DNA of 64,000 nt, taken from assembly GCA_963555985.3 (NCBI GenBank), contig OY820591.1, forward strand, positions 2,080,001-2,144,000, written 5' to 3'. The stretch comes from Dehalococcoidia bacterium. Lineage in GTDB: Bacteria; Chloroflexota; Dehalococcoidia; Bin125. The translations under genes and the position numbers were made by a program. Numbering within the stretch: the first letter of the stretch is position 1; each line of letters starts with the position of its first letter. This document shows, piece after piece, positions 7,362 through 55,330 of this stretch. Below the pieces are notes generated by a model, which made no database searches, had not been told where the DNA came from, and saw nothing but the letters and a program-made list of their open reading frames with translations.

Positions 7362-7865
7362 TTGCAGGGGTTGGCGCCGATTTTGCCTGAGGGGGAGATT
7401 CGGGCTCTGATTCTGGGTTCGTTTCCGAGTGTGCGCTCGCTGGAGACGGGGGAGTATTACGCGCATCCGCAGAACTGGTTTTGGCGGGTGATGGCGCATT
7501 GCGGGGTGATTGAGGACGCGCGGGCGCCTTATGTGGAGCGGGTGGAGCAGGTGCGGGAGCGGGGGATTGCGGTTTGGGATCTGTACGGGCGGGTGCGGCG
7601 GGAGGGTTCGGGGGACGACGCGATTCGGGAGCCGGCGGCGAATGCGGTTGGAGAGGTGATCGGCTGGGAGCAGCCGGTGTTGCTGAACGGCCGGCGGTTG
7701 CGGGAGTTTCGGCGAGCGTTTCCCGGGGTGGAGGCGGAGTTGATCGCGCTGCCGAGCACGAGTCCGCGTCCGCTGCATTGGAACACGGAGGCGTCGCAGG
7801 CGGGGGCGTTGGAGGAGTGGCGGTCGGCGTTGGCGTCCGCGGGGGTGGTCAGTAATTTGGGGTGA
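7362..7865 (+). CDS. Uracil-DNA glycosylase superfamily protein (family 6, hypoxanthine/deoxyinosine glycosylase-like)
   Basis: LILGSFPSVRSL...YYAHPQNWFW, IAVWD, LPSTSP motifs; start (TTG 7362) uncertain. Confidence 0.8.
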   Translation: MQGLAPILPEGEIRALILGSFPSVRSLETGEYYAHPQNWFWRVMAHCGVIEDARAPYVERVEQVRERGIAVWDLYGRVRREGSGDDAIREPAANAVGEVIGWEQPVLLNGRRLREFRRAFPGVEAELIALPSTSPRPLHWNTEASQAGALEEWRSALASAGVVSNLG

Positions 7866-7910
7866 GTGGGGTATTTTTGGCGGTTTTGGTTGGGAATTGC
7901 GTGATTTGGT

Positions 7911-7965
7911 GTTCGATTGCGTTCGATTGCGTTCGATTTTGGACGATTCCGGTCGATTTTGGACG
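7911..7965. repeat. 10-bp-period tandem array
   Basis: gttcgattgc/gttcgattgc/gttcgatttt/ggacgattcc/ggtcgatttt/ggacg. Confidence 0.85.
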
Positions 7966-8064
7966 GCGGTGGTTGGGGTTGGTCGAGCGTTGGTGATGCT
8001 TGGCTCCGGCCTGGGCGGAAATGGGGGACGGGGCATGACGGGATCGTTTCGTGGGGGCTTGATC

Positions 8065-8097
8065 GTACAAGTGTACTGTGTTGGTAGTGGGTGTCAA
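8065..8097 (-). promoter_or_regulatory. Sigma70-like promoter overlapped by a GTAC-N4-GTAC box
   Basis: TTGACA (8097-8092), 16-nt spacer, TACACT (8075-8070); GTAC-AAGT-GTAC at 8065-8076. Confidence 0.5.
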
Positions 8098-8183
8098 GGT
8101 CGTTGGGGAGTGTGGGGGGGGCGATAGTTCGAGGGACGGTTCAGGGTGGCAGAGTTGCAAGGGGGAGGGGTTACGCTTGGCGC

Positions 8184-8462
8184 GTGATCATCCACTTTCG
8201 ACATCGGGGGTTACGCCGACTCTTTGAACGGGGAGACCCGAGCGGAGTTCCACCTCGGCATCGGAGGAAGATCCTGGCCATTCTGCACCTGCTCGACGAG
8301 GCCGCCGGACCGCACCAAATGCCCGACCGTTCTTTGCGGTTACACCCCCTCAAGGGGGATCGGGAAGGCGAGTGGGCGGTTGACGTCAGCCGGATTTGGC
8401 GGATCACCTTCCGATTCGTGGACGGCGATGTCCGCGATGTGGACCTGGTTAACTACCATTAG
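8184..8462 (+). CDS. higB: HigB/RelE-superfamily toxin (plasmid maintenance killer type)
   Basis: IHFRHRGLRRLFERG, LHPLKGDREGEWAVDV..WRITFRF, DVDLVNYH; GTG preceded by TACGCT -10 (probably leaderless). Confidence 0.88.
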   Translation: MIIHFRHRGLRRLFERGDPSGVPPRHRRKILAILHLLDEAAGPHQMPDRSLRLHPLKGDREGEWAVDVSRIWRITFRFVDGDVRDVDLVNYH

Positions 8463-8482
8463 TTCAGGACTGGAGCGAGACC

Positions 8483-8773
8483 ATGCCGATGTACGATCCA
8501 CCGCACCCTGGCGAGTCGGTTCTCTTGCTTTGCCTGGAGCCGCTTGAGCTCTCGATTGCCGATGCGGCCGCGCACCTGGAAGTCGACGAGGCGTACCTGG
8601 GGGCGCTGTGCGAGGGTCGGGCTGCGATCAACGCGGACTTGGCCATTCGCCTGGAGCAGGCGTTCGGCGGTACGGCTGATGTGTGGATGCGGATGCAGGC
8701 CTCTTACGATCTCGCCCAGATGCGGCTGAAGTCTGGTCATATCCAGGTCAAGCCGATCGGCTCGGCGGCCTGA
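8483..8773 (+). CDS. higA: HigA-family antitoxin (XRE HTH), copy 1
   Basis: PPHPGE, INADLAIRLEQAFGGTADVWMRMQASYDL. Confidence 0.9.
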   Translation: MPMYDPPHPGESVLLLCLEPLELSIADAAAHLEVDEAYLGALCEGRAAINADLAIRLEQAFGGTADVWMRMQASYDLAQMRLKSGHIQVKPIGSAA

Positions 8774-8775
8774 TC

Positions 8776-9042
8776 ATGTCGCGCAACAATCCCCATCATC
8801 CTGGCGAGACGGTCCTGGAGGACTGCATTGAGGCCCTGGGGCTGACGATTGCTGAGGCGGCAGAGCACCTTCAGGTGAACGTGGGTGCGCTCAGTGCGAT
8901 CTGCGAGTGCCGCGCTCCGATCACGGCAGAGATGGCGGTGCGCTTCGAGATGGCGTTTGGGAGCACTGCGGATGCGTGGCTACGGATGCAGGCCGCCTAC
9001 GACCTTGCCCAAGCGCGGAAGACGGCCTGCGAGATCAAGTGA
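8776..9042 (+). CDS. higA: HigA-family antitoxin (XRE HTH), copy 2
   Basis: NPHHPGE, ITAEMAVRFEMAFGSTADAWLRMQAAYDL. Confidence 0.85.
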   Translation: MSRNNPHHPGETVLEDCIEALGLTIAEAAEHLQVNVGALSAICECRAPITAEMAVRFEMAFGSTADAWLRMQAAYDLAQARKTACEIK

Positions 9043-9065
9043 ATTGAGCGGGCGGCGTAACGCGG

Positions 9066-10028
9066 CTACTGAACTGATTCTCCGGACCAAGTCAGTAGTT
9101 GCCCGGTCTCAACATCCTGCACGCTCCGCAGGTTAGGTGGATTCTGACCATCGTAGATGGCCTCATCCAACTGGGATTGGATGAGGCCCCTCGCTGGGCT
9201 TGGCTCATCCTCGTGCTCCGCCCCTGAAACAACCCACATAGACCTATGTGGAGTGCTAAAGTCGGTCCCCGACAAAGTCGCACCACGAAGATTCGCTGCT
9301 TCAAGACTAGCGTCACTAAACTTTGCGAACGTGAGATCGCACTTAGAGAAGTTCGTACTAGTGCAAATCGTCCTTGCGAGATTCGCATGCCTCAGGCTCA
9401 CACCTGAAAGATTCAAGCCATGAAGATCTATGCCGACTAGCCTCACCCCGTCAAGATCAACAGCAAAGTCCTGGCTCCGCTCAAAGCAAAGTTCATCTGA
9501 CGTCCGAGAACCAATAAAATCTATAGCGAAGCTAACGTCTTCTCGAACCGAGCCACCGTCATCGCGCTCTGTCTTCGGTTTCTGGGCATTGTCGCCTCTA
9601 GCAGGATCCCGTACAAAAGCAGCGAGAAGTCTGAGCGACTGGATATAGTACTGCTCCCGATCTTGCCGCGACAGTGAGACCAAAGTATGCATCGCACTCA
9701 AGCGCACAGCATTCAGATCATGCCCAAGCATTTGGGCCGCAGCTTGGAATCGCTGATTCGAGATCGCTTCGTGCGCAGCGTTGACGCTGTCGCTCGTAGC
9801 TTTGACCTGCTGTTCGGCGACCCAGCCGCGCCAAATTGCGAGTGGTAGGGCCAACAGCCCGCCCATCATCAGCATGACGTTGCGAACCGTCGTGCTGAGG
9901 CTCTCTTTGTTGTCTCCAGTTCCAGTCAAGTCTCCCCAGAAGACGGCTGATAGCCCCGCTCCGACACTCAGCACGACGACCACAGCGACGCTGAACCAGA
10001 ACGTCCCTGACCTCAGAAGATCCCTCAT
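9066..10028 (-). CDS. Membrane-anchored pentapeptide-repeat protein
   Basis: Two N-terminal TM segments (LALPLAIWR), QRFQAAAQMLG, A(D/N)LXX-type repeats; visibly lower GC than neighbours. Confidence 0.85.
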   Translation of the reverse strand: MRDLLRSGTFWFSVAVVVVLSVGAGLSAVFWGDLTGTGDNKESLSTTVRNVMLMMGGLLALPLAIWRGWVAEQQVKATSDSVNAAHEAISNQRFQAAAQMLGHDLNAVRLSAMHTLVSLSRQDREQYYIQSLRLLAAFVRDPARGDNAQKPKTERDDGGSVREDVSFAIDFIGSRTSDELCFERSQDFAVDLDGVRLVGIDLHGLNLSGVSLRHANLARTICTSTNFSKCDLTFAKFSDASLEAANLRGATLSGTDFSTPHRSMWVVSGAEHEDEPSPARGLIQSQLDEAIYDGQNPPNLRSVQDVETGQLLTWSGESVQ

Positions 10029-10096
10029 TAGACATTCTCCGTGACCCCAAGAATACTCGCGATTCGGCGGGCTGTTTCTGAGAACCGGGACACCTC
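10028..10096 (-). pseudogene. Relic 3' end of a homologue of the adjacent R-M gene
   Basis: EVSRFSETARRIASIL vs EVAWFSETARRIAALL (C-terminus of 11010-14099), 12/16 identical; its TAA overlaps the ATG of the pentapeptide gene. Confidence 0.65.
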
Positions 10097-10114
10097 CGAC
10101 GACCTACCTGATTC

Positions 10115-10306
10115 CGTCATACCCGCGCTCCGCCGCGGGTATCTCGCCGTGTTCAGCACGGACGTCGGTGCTCGTCGCGGCGAGATTGCCCCCTGTTCAG
10201 GCCAGGGGCAGGCTGTGGCGGAGCACGGCAATGACGGATCTTGGGGGGTGGGTGCTGGTCACGGCGAGATTGCCGCGACGGGGCGCGGCAATGACGAGGT
10301 GGGGGC
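10115..10306. repeat. CGTC-tagged REP cluster downstream of GIY-YIG gene (3 units)
   Basis: Units 10115-10149 (+), 10178-10236 (-, with 24-bp insert), 10262-10296 (-); CGTC-ATACCCGCG..CGCGGGTAT-CTCG or CGTC-ATTGCCGYG..CRCGGCAAT-CTCG. Confidence 0.9.
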
Positions 10307-10336
10307 GATGACGGTGCTTGTTGGGTCTCCGTCGTA

Positions 10337-10627
10337 TCAGGCTAGGTCGAAATAGAGGTCTCGCCACTTAGGGTTGAACTTGTCGATCATGCCGCGACGA
10401 CGGGTCTTGCTCCAGCGCTTGATTTGTTTCTCTCGGGCGATCGCTTCGTCCATATGGTCGTGGGCTTCCATCCAGACCAGCTTGTTGATCTGGTAGCGCT
10501 TGGTGAAGGCGGAACCTTCGCCGCGTTTGTGCTGCCAGACGCGACGGGCGAGGTCGGCGGTGACGCCGGTGTAGATGGGTCCGTGGGGTCGGCTGGCGAG
10601 GATGTAGACGCAGGGTTGGCGGGGCAT
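10337..10627 (-). CDS. Small stand-alone GIY-YIG nuclease family protein (96 aa)
   Basis: VYILAS...IYTGVTADLARRVWQHK...FTKRY...AIAREKQIKRW...NPKWRDL; ATG 6 nt after TACCCT. Confidence 0.9.
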   Translation of the reverse strand: MPRQPCVYILASRPHGPIYTGVTADLARRVWQHKRGEGSAFTKRYQINKLVWMEAHDHMDEAIAREKQIKRWSKTRRRGMIDKFNPKWRDLYFDLA

Positions 10628-10661
10628 GGTGGGTAGGGTAGCGGGGGCTTGGTGCTGGTCA

Positions 10662-10979
10662 CGGCGAGATACCCGCGGCAAGCGCGGGTATGACGGATCT
10701 TCGGCGGGGCATGGTGGGTAGGGTAGCGAGGGTTTGGTGGTCGCGGCGGCGGGGTACCTCCTCTACTACGTCATTGCTGCGCTCCGTCGCGGCAATCTCG
10801 CTGTGCGAGCGACGACGGTGCAGAACACGGCGAGATACCCGCGACGGAGCGCGGGTATGACGGAGGTTTTGTTGGGCGCGGGTGTGACGGATCTTTTGGG
10901 TGTGGGCGGCAGGCAGAGAGGTTGGTGCTGGTCACGGCGAGATTGCCGTGGCGGGGCACGGCAATGACGAGGTGGGGGC
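10662..10979. repeat. CGTC-tagged REP cluster upstream of GIY-YIG gene (4 units)
   Basis: Units 10662-10695 (-), 10769-10801 (+), 10828-10862 (-), 10935-10969 (-). Confidence 0.9.
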
Positions 10980-11009: not shown

Positions 11010-14000
11010 CTAGGTTTTCAGCAGGGCGGCGATGCGGCGGGCGGTTTCTGAGAACCAGGCGACTTCGGTGACGGTTAGGGGGCGGCCCAGCACCTTCTCT
11101 TCTCGGTAGCTGAGCCACTTTTTGAGGACCTGGTAGCCGCCCAAACGGTATTCCCAGACCGCCAGCGGTACGTTTGCCCAATATGTCTTGTCGTTCAGGT
11201 AGATGTCCACCGCTTGCCCGTGCTTGACGATCTTGCCTCGGCCGGGCATGACGGCTTGGTTGGCTCCGAAGCGGCCCCAGTTGGCGGTGAGGGCGAAGTC
11301 GTCGGGTTGCATTTGGGTTCCGTCGGTTGTGGTGGGGACGGCGATGGTGTGGTCTAGGTAGGCGGAAACGTCGGACTCGGTGTCGAGGAGGCGGGCGAGT
11401 TGGCGGCCTTTGGCGGCGGACTTGGCGAGAGCTTCGGGGGTGCCGGGGAGGGGGATGCGGGGCCAGCCCAACCTCAAGGGGTCGGCATTGGCGGCTCGGT
11501 ACTTTGGATCGTGCAACGTCGCCACGACGTGGTAGAACAAGTTCTCAGGCTCAGCATCTAGGGATTCGACGTACTTGACGCCTCTGTCGGACAAGTTGAG
11601 CACCCGTTTGGTGGTGTCTGACTCAAGATCAAATTGGAGATCGCGGAGATAGAGCGGGAACCAGCTTGAGAGTCCGTTGCCGAAGTTGTCCGCCATCGCT
11701 CGCACGACAGTACCGCGCTGATACTCAGACTGTGGCTCCCGTTCACGGGCTTCGAGCCAAAGGTTCTCTGCGAACACGTGCGACTGATATTCCGGTCGTG
11801 GACGATCCAGTAGGCCGGCCTGGTCTGACCAGTAGAGCCAGCGGAGATCGAAGGGGCGGTAGGCGTAGCGAATGAAGTCCGTGTCGGCTGCGTCTACGTG
11901 TTCGGCGATGCGCTGCTTGAGCTGATCGAGATCGATGTCCACTACGAGCGAGTCGCGGCTGGTCTTGACGCCGGGGTAGTAGGCGGGGAAGAGGTCTACG
12001 AGGGAGGGCCAGTCGAACCAGTGGTCGCTGACGGCGACGGGGGTGAAGGGGAGGCCGAGGCCGGGCGTGGGGGCGATGGGTTGGTAGAGGGCGGACGGTT
12101 CGGATTCGGCGGTTTCGTCCAGTTCTTGGAGCTTGCCGACGCCCCAGAGTTCCCGCCAGTCGATCTGTTGGGCGGACTGGTGGGATTGCTTGCGGATCAG
12201 GGTGGCGACGGCGGTGCCGACCTGGATGCCGAGCGGATCGTCGGGGGTGGAGAAGATGCTGGGGTCGGGGTCGCCGTCTGGGGTGAGTTTGCCGGTGCGG
12301 TATTTGTCGCCGTTGAGGTTGTCGATGCGGATGTCGTCGAAGGCGTGGAGGTAGCGCTGTCTCATGCCGGGGAAGGAGAGTCCGTCGAGCCAGGAGTAGT
12401 TGGAGATGAAGCAGACGACGCCCTCGCCAGTCTTGTCGGCGATGCGGCGTTCGGCCATGCGGAAGAAGCGGACGTAGAGGTCGTTGAGGCCCTGTCCCTG
12501 TGGTTTGGGCAGGTCTGGGCCGTTGACTTGGCGGTAGGCGTCGGAGAGTTCGCGCTCCTCGTCGACGGCGACGCCGGCGAAACCGCTGTAGGGCGGGTTG
12601 CCGAGGATGACGAGGATGGGTTGTTCCTGTTTGACGGCGTCGGCCTGTTGGCGTTCGTGTTCAAGTTCGGGGAAGGGCATGGGTTTGGTGGTTTCGGGTT
12701 CCCAGCCGATCAGGGCGTTGGTGAGGAAGACGCCGGCGCGCTGGTTGGGTTCGAGCGCGGCGCCCAACTGTTCGAGGGCGAGTCCGATTTCGAGGTGGGC
12801 GACAACGAGCGGGGCGGGCATGATTTCGAAGCCGAAGATGCGGGTGGTTGCGGCCTGGCGGGCGGCGGCGGGAGCGGCTGCGCCCTGGCCGGTGGCGAGT
12901 TCGGTTTGAGCGATGCGGCGCAGGGTCTCGATCAGGAAGGCGCCGGTGCCGCAGCAGGGGTCGAGCACGTAGACGCGCTCGTCGGCGAGTCCTTTGGGGA
13001 TCTTGAGGTCGTCGCGGAGGGCCTGGTCGACGCGGGCGACCATGTAGCGGACGACTGCGCGGGGGGTGTACCAGACGCCGAGTTGTTTGCGGAGGTCGGG
13101 GTCGAAGGCTTCGAGGAAGGGTTCGTAGAAGTACTGGACGGCTTCGCCTTCGTAGAAGCGTTTGAGGAATTCTTCGCGGTCGACGCGGTCGAGGGCGGCT
13201 TCGGTCCAGTCGAGGACATCGGTGAGGTTGAGGCGTTCGAGCCGGCCGGGGTCGGTGAGGTGGTGGAAGAGCATTCGCAGGACGGGCGCGCGCAGGCGGT
13301 AGGCGGTGTCCCACCAACGGAAGCGGTCAGTTTTTCCGGCGGCGAGATCGGCGCGGGAGGAGAGGACCCAGGCGGTGAAGATTCCGTAGAAGAGGGTTTG
13401 CACGAGGGTGGAGCGGAAGAAGTCCTGTCCGCGGGCGTCCTCGTAGCGCATGCCCAGGGCTTGCTCCAGGGCCTCGCGGATGGGGTCAAGGGAGGTTTCA
13501 GCGGCGGCGGCTTGTTCGACGCGCTGAAGCGCCGCTTGGGCGTAGGCGGCCAAGAGCCGGGCCAGGTCGCGCGGATCGGCGATGGCTGCCTGGTGCGTCA
13601 TCACACGAGTCAAGTACTGACCCAGAGCGAGTCCGTGTCGGTTGGCGGCGGCGGTCGGGTGCTTGAGGAGTGCGGTGAAGTCGGCGTCGGTATCGGCGAG
13701 GGAGTAGCGTTCGAGGACGGCTTTGGAGCCATCGCGGTCCTCGCCGACGAGGGCGAACGCTCGCAAGTTGGTGCACAAGACGAGTTTGTGTTGACGCCAG
13801 TACTTGTCGACTTGTTCGGAGGCGATCAGGGCGTCGAGGTCGTGGTCGGAGCCTTTGACCTCGACGACGCCGCGGTCGGGTTGGGGTTGGTCGGCGGAGA
13901 AGAGTCCGAGGTCGGGTTGGCCGGATGTGGTCTCGGCGTAGTGGACGACGGCGCGGACTTTGGGTTTGAGTTGGTCGCCGAGGGCGTCGAAGAGGTTGTC

Positions 14001-14099
14001 GAGAGCGGTGTAGTGGGAGAGCTCGGGCGTGCCGACGCGGTTGACGCCGGCGATGGCGTGGAGGTAGTGGAGGACGGCGGTTCGGAGTTCGGAGTTCAC
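11010..14099 (-). CDS. Single-chain restriction-modification enzyme: PD-(D/E)xK nuclease, N6-adenine MTase and type ISP-like specificity domain (no helicase)
   Basis: QPDLG...VVEVKG, GVWYTP, motif I VLDPCCGTGAFL, motif IV GNPPY, YRPFD, WEYRLGGYQVLKKWLSYR; GTG 14099 overlaps upstream TGA. Confidence 0.88.
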   Translation of the reverse strand: MNSELRTAVLHYLHAIAGVNRVGTPELSHYTALDNLFDALGDQLKPKVRAVVHYAETTSGQPDLGLFSADQPQPDRGVVEVKGSDHDLDALIASEQVDKYWRQHKLVLCTNLRAFALVGEDRDGSKAVLERYSLADTDADFTALLKHPTAAANRHGLALGQYLTRVMTHQAAIADPRDLARLLAAYAQAALQRVEQAAAAETSLDPIREALEQALGMRYEDARGQDFFRSTLVQTLFYGIFTAWVLSSRADLAAGKTDRFRWWDTAYRLRAPVLRMLFHHLTDPGRLERLNLTDVLDWTEAALDRVDREEFLKRFYEGEAVQYFYEPFLEAFDPDLRKQLGVWYTPRAVVRYMVARVDQALRDDLKIPKGLADERVYVLDPCCGTGAFLIETLRRIAQTELATGQGAAAPAAARQAATTRIFGFEIMPAPLVVAHLEIGLALEQLGAALEPNQRAGVFLTNALIGWEPETTKPMPFPELEHERQQADAVKQEQPILVILGNPPYSGFAGVAVDEERELSDAYRQVNGPDLPKPQGQGLNDLYVRFFRMAERRIADKTGEGVVCFISNYSWLDGLSFPGMRQRYLHAFDDIRIDNLNGDKYRTGKLTPDGDPDPSIFSTPDDPLGIQVGTAVATLIRKQSHQSAQQIDWRELWGVGKLQELDETAESEPSALYQPIAPTPGLGLPFTPVAVSDHWFDWPSLVDLFPAYYPGVKTSRDSLVVDIDLDQLKQRIAEHVDAADTDFIRYAYRPFDLRWLYWSDQAGLLDRPRPEYQSHVFAENLWLEAREREPQSEYQRGTVVRAMADNFGNGLSSWFPLYLRDLQFDLESDTTKRVLNLSDRGVKYVESLDAEPENLFYHVVATLHDPKYRAANADPLRLGWPRIPLPGTPEALAKSAAKGRQLARLLDTESDVSAYLDHTIAVPTTTDGTQMQPDDFALTANWGRFGANQAVMPGRGKIVKHGQAVDIYLNDKTYWANVPLAVWEYRLGGYQVLKKWLSYREEKVLGRPLTVTEVAWFSETARRIAALLKT

Positions 14100-15005
14100 T
14101 CGCGTCCCACTCCGCCGCGCCAGACGAGGGGTTGTCCGGTTTCGGCGTCGAGCACGCCGTCGAGGATGGGGGGGTCGTCGGGATCGGCCATGGCGGAGTC
14201 GATCTGAGCTTGGGTGAGTCCGACGGCTGGGCCTTCGAGTCGGTCGGAGAAGATGGCGCCGCTGATGTCGGCGCCGAGCAGGTTGGCGCCGGTGAAGTTG
14301 GCGGCCCAGAGTTCGGTGCCGTGGAGGATGGAGCGGGAGAGGTTGGCGTTGGTGAGGTTGGCTCCTGAGAGCCAAGCGCCGGAGAGGTCGGCACGGCGCA
14401 GAATCGCGTCGACGAAGTAGCCGCCTTCGGCTCGAGCGCCGGCCCAGTTCTGTCCGGTCCAGTCAATCGGATGCCAACCCGGGAGCCGTTGCGACACCGA
14501 GTCTGTACGCACACGCACGAGGGTCTGTCTGTCGAACGGCAACGGCTTGACCGGCTTACGCCAACGCTTCGTCGTCATCGTCAACCTCCGGCGACGTCAG
14601 CCGCTCTCCGCTGGTCAGCATGGTAATGACGGCGAGCGCGTATCGATCAGGATAGTCTTCAGCGAGCTGCCGCAGCGTTAAGATCGCCGCACCCCGGACG
14701 CCGGCGTGAGGGCTCAGAAGCCAGTCCACGGCTCGATTGAACCGCTCATCCAGTAGCGTTTGATGCGCGGTCTCGGCCTGGCGCTCGCTGACGCGGCTGC
14801 GCCAGATGGCGAGGGGAAGAGCGATCACGGCGGCGGCGATCAGGCCGAAGTTGCGCACCTCGTCGGAGGAGTCCCACCAGATGATCGCGACTGTGATCAG
14901 CAGTACTAGCGCGGCGATCGTGACCAGCGCCAGGCGCGACTCTAAGCGCCACAATGCTGAGCGGAGCAGTGCTTCCAACCATCGCAGCGGGTCAATCCAA
15001 CTCAC
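14096..15005 (-). pseudogene. Membrane-anchored pentapeptide-repeat protein, split by a frameshift (parts 15005-14556 and ~14584-14096)
   Basis: N-half IALPLAIWR...ERFNRAVDWL and C-half ADLSGA/ANLTNANL...LTQAQID...DAETGQPLVW together match the intact paralogue 9066-10028 but lie in different frames. Confidence 0.7.
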
Positions 15006-23985: not shown

Positions 23986-24045
23986 CGCGGGAATCCGGAT
24001 GTCACTCGAGACGCCGCATGGATTCCCGCGTGCGCGGGAATGACG
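23986..24045. repeat. CGTC-tagged REP (dRS3-like ATTCCCGCG-TG-CGCGGGAAT) plus degenerate partner
   Basis: GGATTCCCGCGTGCGCGGGAATGACG at 24020-24045; half-site GCGGGAATCC near 23986. Confidence 0.75.
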
Positions 24046-36758: not shown

Positions 36759-36856
36759 CGTCATTGCCGCGCCCCGTCGCGGCAATCTCGATGTGTGTTG
36801 CCCTGACCGTCTGTGCGCGACTCAGCGAGATACCCGCGGCAGGCGCGGGTATGACG
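36759..36856. repeat. Inverted CGTC-REP dimer
   Basis: CGTCATTGCCGCG..CGCGGCAATCTCG - spacer - CGAGATACCCGCG..CGCGGGTATGACG. Confidence 0.88.
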
Positions 36857-55233: not shown

Positions 55234-55330
55234 CGTCATTGCCGCGCTCCGCCGCGGCAATCTCGCCTTGTTGTGCACCGACGGCCGTGCCGAACACAGC
55301 CAGATACCCGCGGCAAGCGCGGGTATGACG
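55234..55330. repeat. Inverted CGTC-REP dimer
   Basis: CGTCATTGCCGCG..CGCGGCAATCTCG - spacer - CAGATACCCGCG..CGCGGGTATGACG; spacer resembles that of 10115-10236. Confidence 0.88.

Follow-up and report, generated by a model that had tools for sequence, protein, structure and literature searches.

A stand-alone GIY-YIG nuclease gene among CGTC-tagged palindromes in a Dehalococcoidia genome: a very probable Ssn-family member with a variant repeat

The locus described here lies in a 64,000-nucleotide (nt) stretch of a Dehalococcoidia bacterium genome (assembly GCA_963555985.3, contig OY820591.1, positions 2,080,001 to 2,144,000; hereafter the window), where a gene for a small GIY-YIG nuclease is set among seven palindromes tagged with CGTC. 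Repetitive extragenic palindromes (REPs) of bacteria have been sorted into GTAG and CGTC superfamilies, the second of which is described as being without a dedicated transposase (Di Nocera et al., 2013; PMC3733652). In March 2025, a family of site-specific nucleases for single-stranded DNA, named Ssn, was defined, corresponding to the Conserved Domain Database (CDD) entry cd10448 (GIY-YIG_unchar_3; Chenal et al., 2025; PMC11893778). The features of the locus are as follows, in window coordinates.

10115-10148, plus strand: REP1, CGTC-ATACCCGCG-ctccgc-CGCGGGTAT-CTCGCC; single-stranded fold -10.4 kcal/mol
10179-10236, minus strand: REP2, ATTGCCGTG-type, interrupted by about 24 nt with a small hairpin of their own in the 3' arm
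10247-10306, plus strand: left copy of a 60-nt direct repeat (93% identity), containing REP3
10263-10296, minus strand: REP3, CGTC-ATTGCCGCG-ccccgt-CGCGGCAAT-CTCGCC; single-stranded fold -11.5 kcal/mol
10337-10627, minus strand: ssn-type gene, intact, encoding a single-domain GIY-YIG nuclease of 96 aa (open reading frame and Pfam PF01541)
10663-10695, minus strand: REP4, CGTC-ATACCCGCG-cttgc-CGCGGGTAT-CTCGCC; single-stranded fold -11.1 kcal/mol
10692-10758, plus strand: degenerate duplicate (79%) of 10607-10673, from repeat comparison
10769-10802, plus strand: REP5, stem ATTGCTGCG with one stem mismatch; half of the doublet 10769-10862
10829-10862, minus strand: REP6, stem ATACCCGCG; half of the doublet 10769-10862
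10876-10891, minus strand: half-REP remnant, a 3' arm plus GACG, from repeat comparison
10920-10979, plus strand: right copy of the 60-nt direct repeat (93% identity), containing REP7
10936-10969, minus strand: REP7, CGTC-ATTGCCGTG-ccccgc-CACGGCAAT-CTCGCC; single-stranded fold -9.9 kcal/mol

All seven units share one anatomy, namely CGTC, a 9-nt stem starting with AT, a loop of 5-6 nt, the complementary stem and CTCGCC (CTCGCT in REP5). The stems read ATACCCGCG or ATTGCCG(C/T)G, each stem change is matched on the other arm, and the CGCG/CGTG..CACG variant inside one stem subtype also keeps pairing. Six of the seven fold as single-stranded DNA (ssDNA) at -8.6 to -11.5 kcal/mol (z -2.3 to -3.9), and in the predicted fold the tag and the tail can also pair through their CG dinucleotides, beyond a 2x2 internal loop. 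The exception is REP2, which has an intact tag, outer stem and tail and folds no better than shuffled sequences (z +0.92). Because Ssn enzymes are reported to tolerate extensions at the loop position of the hairpin (Chenal et al., 2025), REP2 might by analogy still be a substrate of the nuclease. REP3 stands directly 3' of the stop codon and REP4 about 40 nt 5' of the ATG, both oriented as the gene, and the REP5/REP6 doublet, with its tags outward, folds at -41.7 kcal/mol (z -8.6). The copies of the 60-nt direct repeat bracket the gene. The block 10607-10673 comprises the gene's start codon, first codons and upstream spacer, and its degenerate duplicate is a relic of local tandem duplication.

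A preliminary description of this DNA, made from the letters alone, had placed three units on one side of a stand-alone 96-aa GIY-YIG gene and four on the other, had read every unit as CGTC-stem-loop-stem-CTCG and had recognised two stem subtypes (one being ATTGCCGYG..CRCGGCAAT) whose differences keep pairing. The open reading frame (ORF), the Pfam match and the repeat reading bear this out, for 7/7 units and with matched changes on both arms. It had also noted a 56-bp direct repeat, whose three differences consist of one compensatory pair and one change in the loop, and whose match in fact extends to 60 nt.

In the window at large, a strict unit pattern (GTCATWSCCGYG-N5-6-CRCGGSWATCT) has nine matches, whereas 100 dinucleotide shuffles of the window gave a mean of 0.00. 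Five of the nine fall inside 10116-10968 and the other four make up two doublets (36760/36828 and 55235/55302), and the claim that REP density in the window is highest at the gene is therefore correct. The dispersed doublets are the following.

36759-36856, no strand assigned: dispersed REP doublet, ATTGCCGCG on plus and ATACCCGCG on minus, in an intergenic gap; fold -35.6 kcal/mol
55234-55330, no strand assigned: dispersed REP doublet, ATTGCCGCG on plus and ATACCCGCG on minus, in an intergenic gap; fold -34.6 kcal/mol

Each of the three window doublets holds one unit per stem subtype with tags outward, and in the long hairpins that they form (-35 to -42 kcal/mol) the positions at which the subtypes differ make small internal loops. 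The two dispersed doublets are 90-100% identical to the units at the gene. A canonical-looking CGTC unit also occurs at 24018-24045 (minus strand), with a ATTCCCGCG stem, a 3-nt loop and a CCA tail, and fits the pattern published for the hairpins of Ssn genes. The window has no second copy of the nuclease gene, so that this unit represents a second type of repeat beside the CTCG-tailed family. No Rfam family reached its gathering score anywhere in the window.

The 96-aa protein matches the Pfam GIY-YIG domain (PF01541) at E=5.1e-15 over residues 5-76, its sole domain in a Pfam search. An alternative ORF started by TTG (10337-10681, 114 aa) would extend into a repeat; the start at ATG 10627 is matched within about 3 residues by all 28 rows of an alignment of the family. 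The family-invariant columns of that alignment (Y8, Y19, G21, R29, H33, E66 and N85) are all kept in the window protein. Y8, Y19, R29, E66 and N85 are identical in 28/28 sequences, and these five are taken to have catalytic roles, following the I-TevI/UvrC literature. The AlphaFold2 model is one compact domain with a mean predicted local distance difference test score (pLDDT) of 91.9, and a fold search of the Protein Data Bank (PDB) with this model ranks GIY-YIG folds at the top, the best solved look-alikes being UPF0213 BH0048, Slx1 and the UvrC N-terminal domain. Sequence and fold searches of solved structures gave no Ssn-type match closer than these three. NCBIfam has no specific model for the protein and returned solely a DEDD exonuclease match below threshold (17.9 bits, the cutoff being 508), and a phage search yielded three weak matches at 32-42% identity, which do not indicate a phage origin. 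Ratios of nonsynonymous to synonymous substitution (dN/dS) of 0.05-0.28 among four nuclease genes (the window and the homologous loci L001, L002 and L003) indicate that the gene is under purifying selection, with its function retained.

Much is reported of the Ssn family to which this protein can be compared. SsnA of Neisseria meningitidis is a single-domain GIY-YIG protein of 94 aa assigned to cd10448, and in many bacteria ssnA is flanked by the Neisseria repeat NTS (CGTCATTCCCGCGMAVGCGGGAATCYRG), which encompasses dRS3, and by related hairpins termed Ssn-related motifs (SRM), on at least one side of 71% of ssnA homologues and on both sides of 42% (Chenal et al., 2025). Four purified homologues bound their own hairpin solely as ssDNA, on the CGTC strand only, and cut just upstream of it, enzymes from Neisseria and Wolbachia being among those assayed; duplex DNA and RNA were left uncut, the identity of the loop nucleotides was not essential, and active-site mutations abolished cleavage (Chenal et al., 2025). 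A proteome-wide screen in the same study singled out only the ssn gene. Dehalogenimonas, of the Dehalococcoidia, and Azospirillum lipoferum 4B are both among the 29 seed genomes from which SRM was defined (Chenal et al., 2025). Besides this study, a literature search found no paper linking GIY-YIG proteins to CGTC-tagged repeats.

The window protein matches a Neisseria gonorrhoeae record (NZ_CP119140.1, L081) at E=5e-23, and the match is a 94-aa ORF amid nine strict NTS and 16 dRS3 sites in 3.3 kb. The two proteins align without gaps at 43/92 identical residues (47%; E=1e-33), in a part of the record that carries no annotation, and from its length, domain and NTS context we infer that the gonococcal ORF is ssnA. 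The record is filed as a plasmid of 2.17 Mb with 12 annotated features; it is chromosome-sized and thus evidently mislabelled. Identity to an annotated GIY-YIG protein of A. lipoferum 4B is 42%. Supplementary data 4 of Chenal et al. (2025) gives the species of four further loci (L034, L043, L052 and L057) as cd10448-positive, at the level of species and not of genes.

The association of gene and repeat was followed across genomes. Relatives of similar length numbered 1767 at E<=1e-5, the closest being 79-91% identical and from Chloroflexota wherever the source names them. A scan of one genome per species, with two peptide patterns from the 28-sequence alignment, gave at least 551 confirmed relatives, of which the best-scoring 80 were taken together with flanks of at most 5 kb; they belong to Chloroflexota, Alpha-, Beta- and Gammaproteobacteria, Planctomycetota, Elusimicrobiota, Gemmatimonadota, Nitrospirota and others. 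In these 80 loci the density of perfect 8-bp hairpins (loop of 3-8 nt) is 6.45/kb over the 100 bp closest to the gene, 3.55/kb over the following 100 bp and 0.40/kb at distances above 500 bp. Such a hairpin lies within 250 bp in 62/80 loci, and on both sides in 46/80. Almost all of those near the gene have the form cgtc-AT......-loop-......AT-cca, that of the classical CGTC REP. Within 500 bp of the gene, 9/80 loci have the strict Neisseria NTS consensus and 54/80 the published SRM pattern (33/80 on both sides), the latter very near the 71% and 42% of Chenal et al. (2025).

With the window added (81 loci), perfect hairpins tagged with GTC number 178 in the 47.3 kb near the gene (3.76/kb) and 77 in the 594 kb more than 600 bp away (0.13/kb), so that their density within 300 bp is 29-fold that beyond 600 bp. 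Far sequence outside any 100-aa stop-to-stop ORF holds 14 tagged hairpins in 16.3 kb (0.86/kb); even against this far non-ORF DNA the enrichment is 4.4-fold, across many phyla. The base before GTC is C in 168 of the 178 near-gene units, whose tails are CCA in 134 and CTC in 31. A tagged hairpin is present at strict criteria in 62/81 loci, and when one mismatch is allowed, 8 of the remaining 19 gain one as well. The preliminary description had proposed this nuclease as the cognate enzyme of the CGTC-tagged REPs and had asked whether homologues are enriched for flanking CGTC palindromes; the densities given here, together with the cutting of hairpins by homologues (Chenal et al., 2025), speak for the proposal. 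They support this GIY-YIG subfamily as the enzyme associated with CGTC-tagged palindromes.

The type of repeat also follows the type of protein. A protein tree was built from 79 rows, with L057 and L071 left out. The homologues in these two loci (Microbulbifer yueqingensis and an alphaproteobacterial metagenome-assembled genome, MAG) have one in-frame stop codon each and may be pseudogenes or sequencing errors. CTC-tailed repeats occur in 7/79 rows, and six of the seven fall in one well-supported nine-row clade that comprises the window, L001-L003, L004, L005 and three rows with other tails or none; shuffled labels clustered as tightly in 0/500 trials. A Mantel test of protein against repeat distance gave r=0.52, with 0/2000 permutations as high, and r=0.34 without the window's clade, again with 0/2000 as high. 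Repeat type thus tracks protein clade, a co-variation check having been suggested in the preliminary description, and shared ancestry alone could explain part of the correlation.

Several observations weigh against assigning the gene to the Ssn family and the palindromes to its motifs. The published SRM pattern fits one of the seven local units (REP6, 10831-10862) and none of the four dispersed ones, and it has no match in L001, none in L003 and one near the gene in L002; recognition of this repeat variant is therefore an extrapolation. The tail is CTCGCC and not CCA, and the loops of 5-6 nt are GC-rich. The association is not universal in the family, since 11/81 loci have no credible tagged hairpin (10 of them in one clade), and the 80 loci, being top-scoring, are not a random sample. 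The two units nearest the window gene are direct, both in gene orientation, unlike the commoner inverted arrangement. That arrangement is not fixed, the nearest upstream unit having '+' orientation in 33/54 loci and the nearest downstream unit '-' orientation in 37/54.

The clade poor in repeats is well supported and has 11 rows (L009, L012, L013, L018, L028, L032, L035, L052, L063, L066 and L077). In ten of these rows, allowing a mismatch still reveals no credible CGTC hairpin next to the gene. The repeats may have been lost from this subfamily, or another motif may be used in it; L035 is a contig of 601 bp only.

Taken together, the gene is very probably a member of the Ssn family, and the palindromes around it its cognate SRM, in the form of a lineage-specific variant of CGTC-tagged REPs. 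Since the Ssn family has been in print since March 2025, the pairing of nuclease and CGTC REP seen here is not a new system, and the locus is a further Ssn example with a variant repeat. Binding and cleavage of ssDNA by the window protein would follow by analogy with its relatives, and its homology to characterised Ssn enzymes points to a likely mechanism. When replication, repair, uptake or transfer turns the DNA single-stranded, the repeat would fold into a 9-bp hairpin, and the protein would recognise the hairpin together with the unpaired CGTC beside it, on the CGTC-reading strand alone. The strand would then be hydrolysed a few nucleotides 5' of the tag, and duplex DNA and RNA would stay uncut.

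The likeness to published Ssn/SRM loci lies in the single-domain GIY-YIG protein of about 94-97 aa, in the embedding of its gene among CGTC-tagged hairpins, and in the dispersal of the repeats in intergenic DNA, mostly as inverted doublets. Unlike those loci, the window repeat has a 9-bp stem, a GC-rich loop of 5-6 nt and a CTCGCC tail with a CG able to pair with the CG of the tag; each of its doublets contains both stem subtypes, and the gene's nearest units are direct and not inverted. CGTC REPs have been defined by a CGTC (or TGTC/CCTC) end, an 8-9-bp stem starting from AT, a 4-5-nt loop and a CCA tail, in four families (CGTC-1 to -4), and the superfamily includes dRS3 and RPE-4/-6; Chloroflexota is not among the five phyla that paper lists for them (Di Nocera et al., 2013). 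In 7/7 window units the terminal CGTC, the AT-starting stem and a short unpaired tail agree with this definition, and the units are repeated and dispersed, with three inverted doublets, inverted dimers being predominant among published CGTC REPs too (Di Nocera et al., 2013). Their loops of 5-6 nt and CTC(GCC) tail differ from the 4-5 nt and the CCA consensus, so that the window units fit none of the four families exactly.

Among other stand-alone GIY-YIG proteins of about 100 aa, it is the UPF0213/YhbQ-like group (PDB 1zg2, BH0048; 1ywl, EF2693) that supplies the best-matching solved structures, both by sequence (E=2.4e-8) and by fold. Identity is only about 28%, which makes UPF0213 a sister family of the window protein, and to our knowledge no association of UPF0213/YhbQ-like proteins with hairpin repeats has been described.

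The preliminary description had called the locus RAYT-like, after the REP-associated tyrosine transposases (RAYT). In architecture the comparison stands: as in RAYT/REPtron loci, one small nuclease gene is flanked by palindromes that are also dispersed as inverted doublets, and by analogy the enzyme would, like RAYT, recognise ssDNA hairpins. In chemistry and family it fails, since GIY-YIG and HUH enzymes have unrelated folds and the tag is CGTC and not GTAG. GIY-YIG nucleases hydrolyse DNA, with no covalent tyrosine intermediate of the kind formed in strand transfer by HUH transposases. The window protein has no match to Y1_Tnp, and the HUH motif and catalytic tyrosine of IS200/IS605-type Y1 transposases were not found in it. 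The remark in the preliminary description that CGTC REPs, dRS3 included, have no assigned enzyme is true of Di Nocera et al. (2013) and has been superseded by Chenal et al. (2025), in which the question left open in 2013 was answered.

A broader role for the nuclease is conceivable. The locus could be a mobile element, autonomous at least until recently, in which the nuclease propagates doublets through the genome by hydrolytic nicking and host repair or replication, as an analogue of RAYT and their doublets (REPINs). The architecture resembles that of an insertion sequence (IS), with repeats on both sides in 46/80 loci, and the dispersed doublets are 90-100% identical to the gene-side units. 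L002 and L003, close homologues at 81-88% protein identity, share only the gene and repeats with the window and have entirely different neighbours. On plasmid AZO_p3 of A. lipoferum 4B (L082, 1392-1898), the nuclease with a REP doublet on each side stands between sufB and sufC, which looks like an insertion into this operon of Fe-S cluster assembly. Near-identical tandem copies of the nuclease are present in 4/80 loci (87/87, 89/90, 91/91 and 87/89 residues), and the window gene itself shows local duplications. Chenal et al. (2025) raise the idea themselves: their Discussion likens NTS-ssnA-NTS to insertion sequences and to systems of RAYT, REP and bacterial interspersed mosaic elements (BIME), suggests domestication, and offers spreading of the repeats by Ssn as a hypothesis only.

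Against mobility, the locus shares synteny with that of the Dehalococcoidia MAG L001 at 72-85% nucleotide identity, in a type ISP restriction-modification gene to one side of the nuclease and in two blocks to the other, and has thus kept its position through substantial divergence. The nuclease itself is 89% identical between the two, and their REP arrays differ in number, L001 having eight units upstream. Neither a target-site duplication nor an empty site was found at the locus, and the sole candidate footprint, a second copy of the type ISP 3' end, matches the first at only 84% identity and is missing from L001. The window holds a single gene copy and only four dispersed units in 64 kb, GIY-YIG chemistry as known from the superfamily lacks a covalent intermediate for strand transfer, and the role reported for Ssn is modulation of transformation and not transposition (Chenal et al., 2025). 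The mobile element is therefore a possibility that we regard as rather doubtful. Synteny and low dN/dS, both read from sequence, point to a resident, selected gene and not a recently jumping one. Taken together, these comparisons show selection and long residence at this locus, duplications close to the gene and, over longer periods, its relocation.

Since the chemistry gives no covalent strand-transfer step, any part of the nuclease in duplications or in the spread of doublets would need host repair. Nicks at the clustered repeats may drive local duplications around the gene, and generation of such duplications by the nuclease is speculative, as is the spreading of the REPs that the preliminary description also proposed. 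More tentative still than the mobile element is the idea that Ssn in this Dehalococcoidia lineage copies heterodimeric, CTCG-tailed doublets to new sites in a hydrolytic, non-covalent way, by an ssDNA nick beside an extruded hairpin, after which repair or replication would draw on another copy; having two stem subtypes would keep each hairpin folding alone and not pairing with its partner. If true, this would be a second route of REP propagation, mechanistically independent of that by HUH RAYTs.

GIY-YIG homing endonucleases carry a C-terminal DNA-binding domain and cut duplex DNA. The gene could be a free-standing selfish gene of this type, with the REP clusters as landing sites, target and not cargo, and the association an insertion preference. 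Such endonucleases (I-TevI, Seg proteins) share the catalytic domain and a selfish-gene-like distribution, I-TevI is among the fold matches, the gene is found in varied contexts including the suf operon, and it always lies within repeat clusters. Co-variation of repeat and protein fits this reading and specific recognition alike and does not separate them. Unlike homing endonucleases, the window protein is the catalytic domain alone: at 96 aa and with a single domain, it has no C-terminal DNA-binding domain such as those of homing endonucleases (about 200-250 aa), and its I-TevI fold match is weak (E about 2). Synteny with L001 also speaks against homing, as does the finding that characterised homologues do not cut duplex DNA, which homing requires (Chenal et al., 2025), and we consider this explanation improbable. 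That the palindromes are ordinary terminators or regulatory hairpins, dense by chance and without functional link to the nuclease, is hardly credible: REPs are generally intergenic and, once transcribed, can work as hairpins in RNA (Di Nocera et al., 2013), and the dispersed doublets are intergenic too, but no T-tracts follow the hairpins, a terminator scan of the window gave three hits of which none is a REP, the 4.4-fold enrichment over far non-ORF DNA extends across many phyla, and the published screen pointed to this gene alone (Chenal et al., 2025).

For the Ssn family, the locus indicates that the published SRM pattern misses a clade of nuclease-repeat pairs with CTCG tails and longer, GC-rich loops, so that the published association rate of 71% is probably an underestimate. 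For the tool-building proposed by Chenal et al. (2025), the window protein is a candidate that would bring a new specificity for ssDNA. The window and L001, syntenic and differing in repeat number, are a natural place to study the growth of such arrays.

Duplicated nuclease genes were seen at several loci. L014, L016, L033 and L049 have two copies 600-1000 bp apart whose proteins are 97-100% identical; the copies of L022 are 80% identical, and those of L079 are 93% identical and 4 kb apart. The tandem copies are recent local duplications of the repeat-gene unit. In the window gene, the codons for CVYILA read CGTC...CTCGCC and resemble a collapsed REP, probably by a coincidence of codon choice.

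Beside the REP cluster, a block at about 7835-10115 is missing from L001, which has a gap of about 660 bp at this place, and represents an indel, adjoining the cluster, between loci that are syntenic otherwise. It contains the following genes.

8091-8462: HigB-like toxin gene
8483-8773 and 8683-9042: two ORFs with helix-turn-helix (HTH)/HigA-like products
9066-10028: pentapeptide-repeat gene

The C-terminal end of the type ISP gene (...SEVSRFSETARRIASILGVTENV*) has a relic copy across the REP/nuclease cluster, 10030-10108 (minus strand) against 11010-11075, with a core at 10059-10096 that is 84% identical to the gene end at 11029-11066 over 38 nt. This relic ends exactly where the pentapeptide-repeat gene starts; as an insertion footprint of a cassette it was rejected, being absent from L001 and abutting the block that L001 lacks. 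The type ISP ORF itself (11010-14375, minus strand) has Type_ISP_C, N6_Mtase and MmeI_Mtase domains and is conserved beside the nuclease in L001. Its N-terminus begins with about 90 residues of low-complexity sequence rich in Arg, Pro and His, and the true start is probably further downstream.

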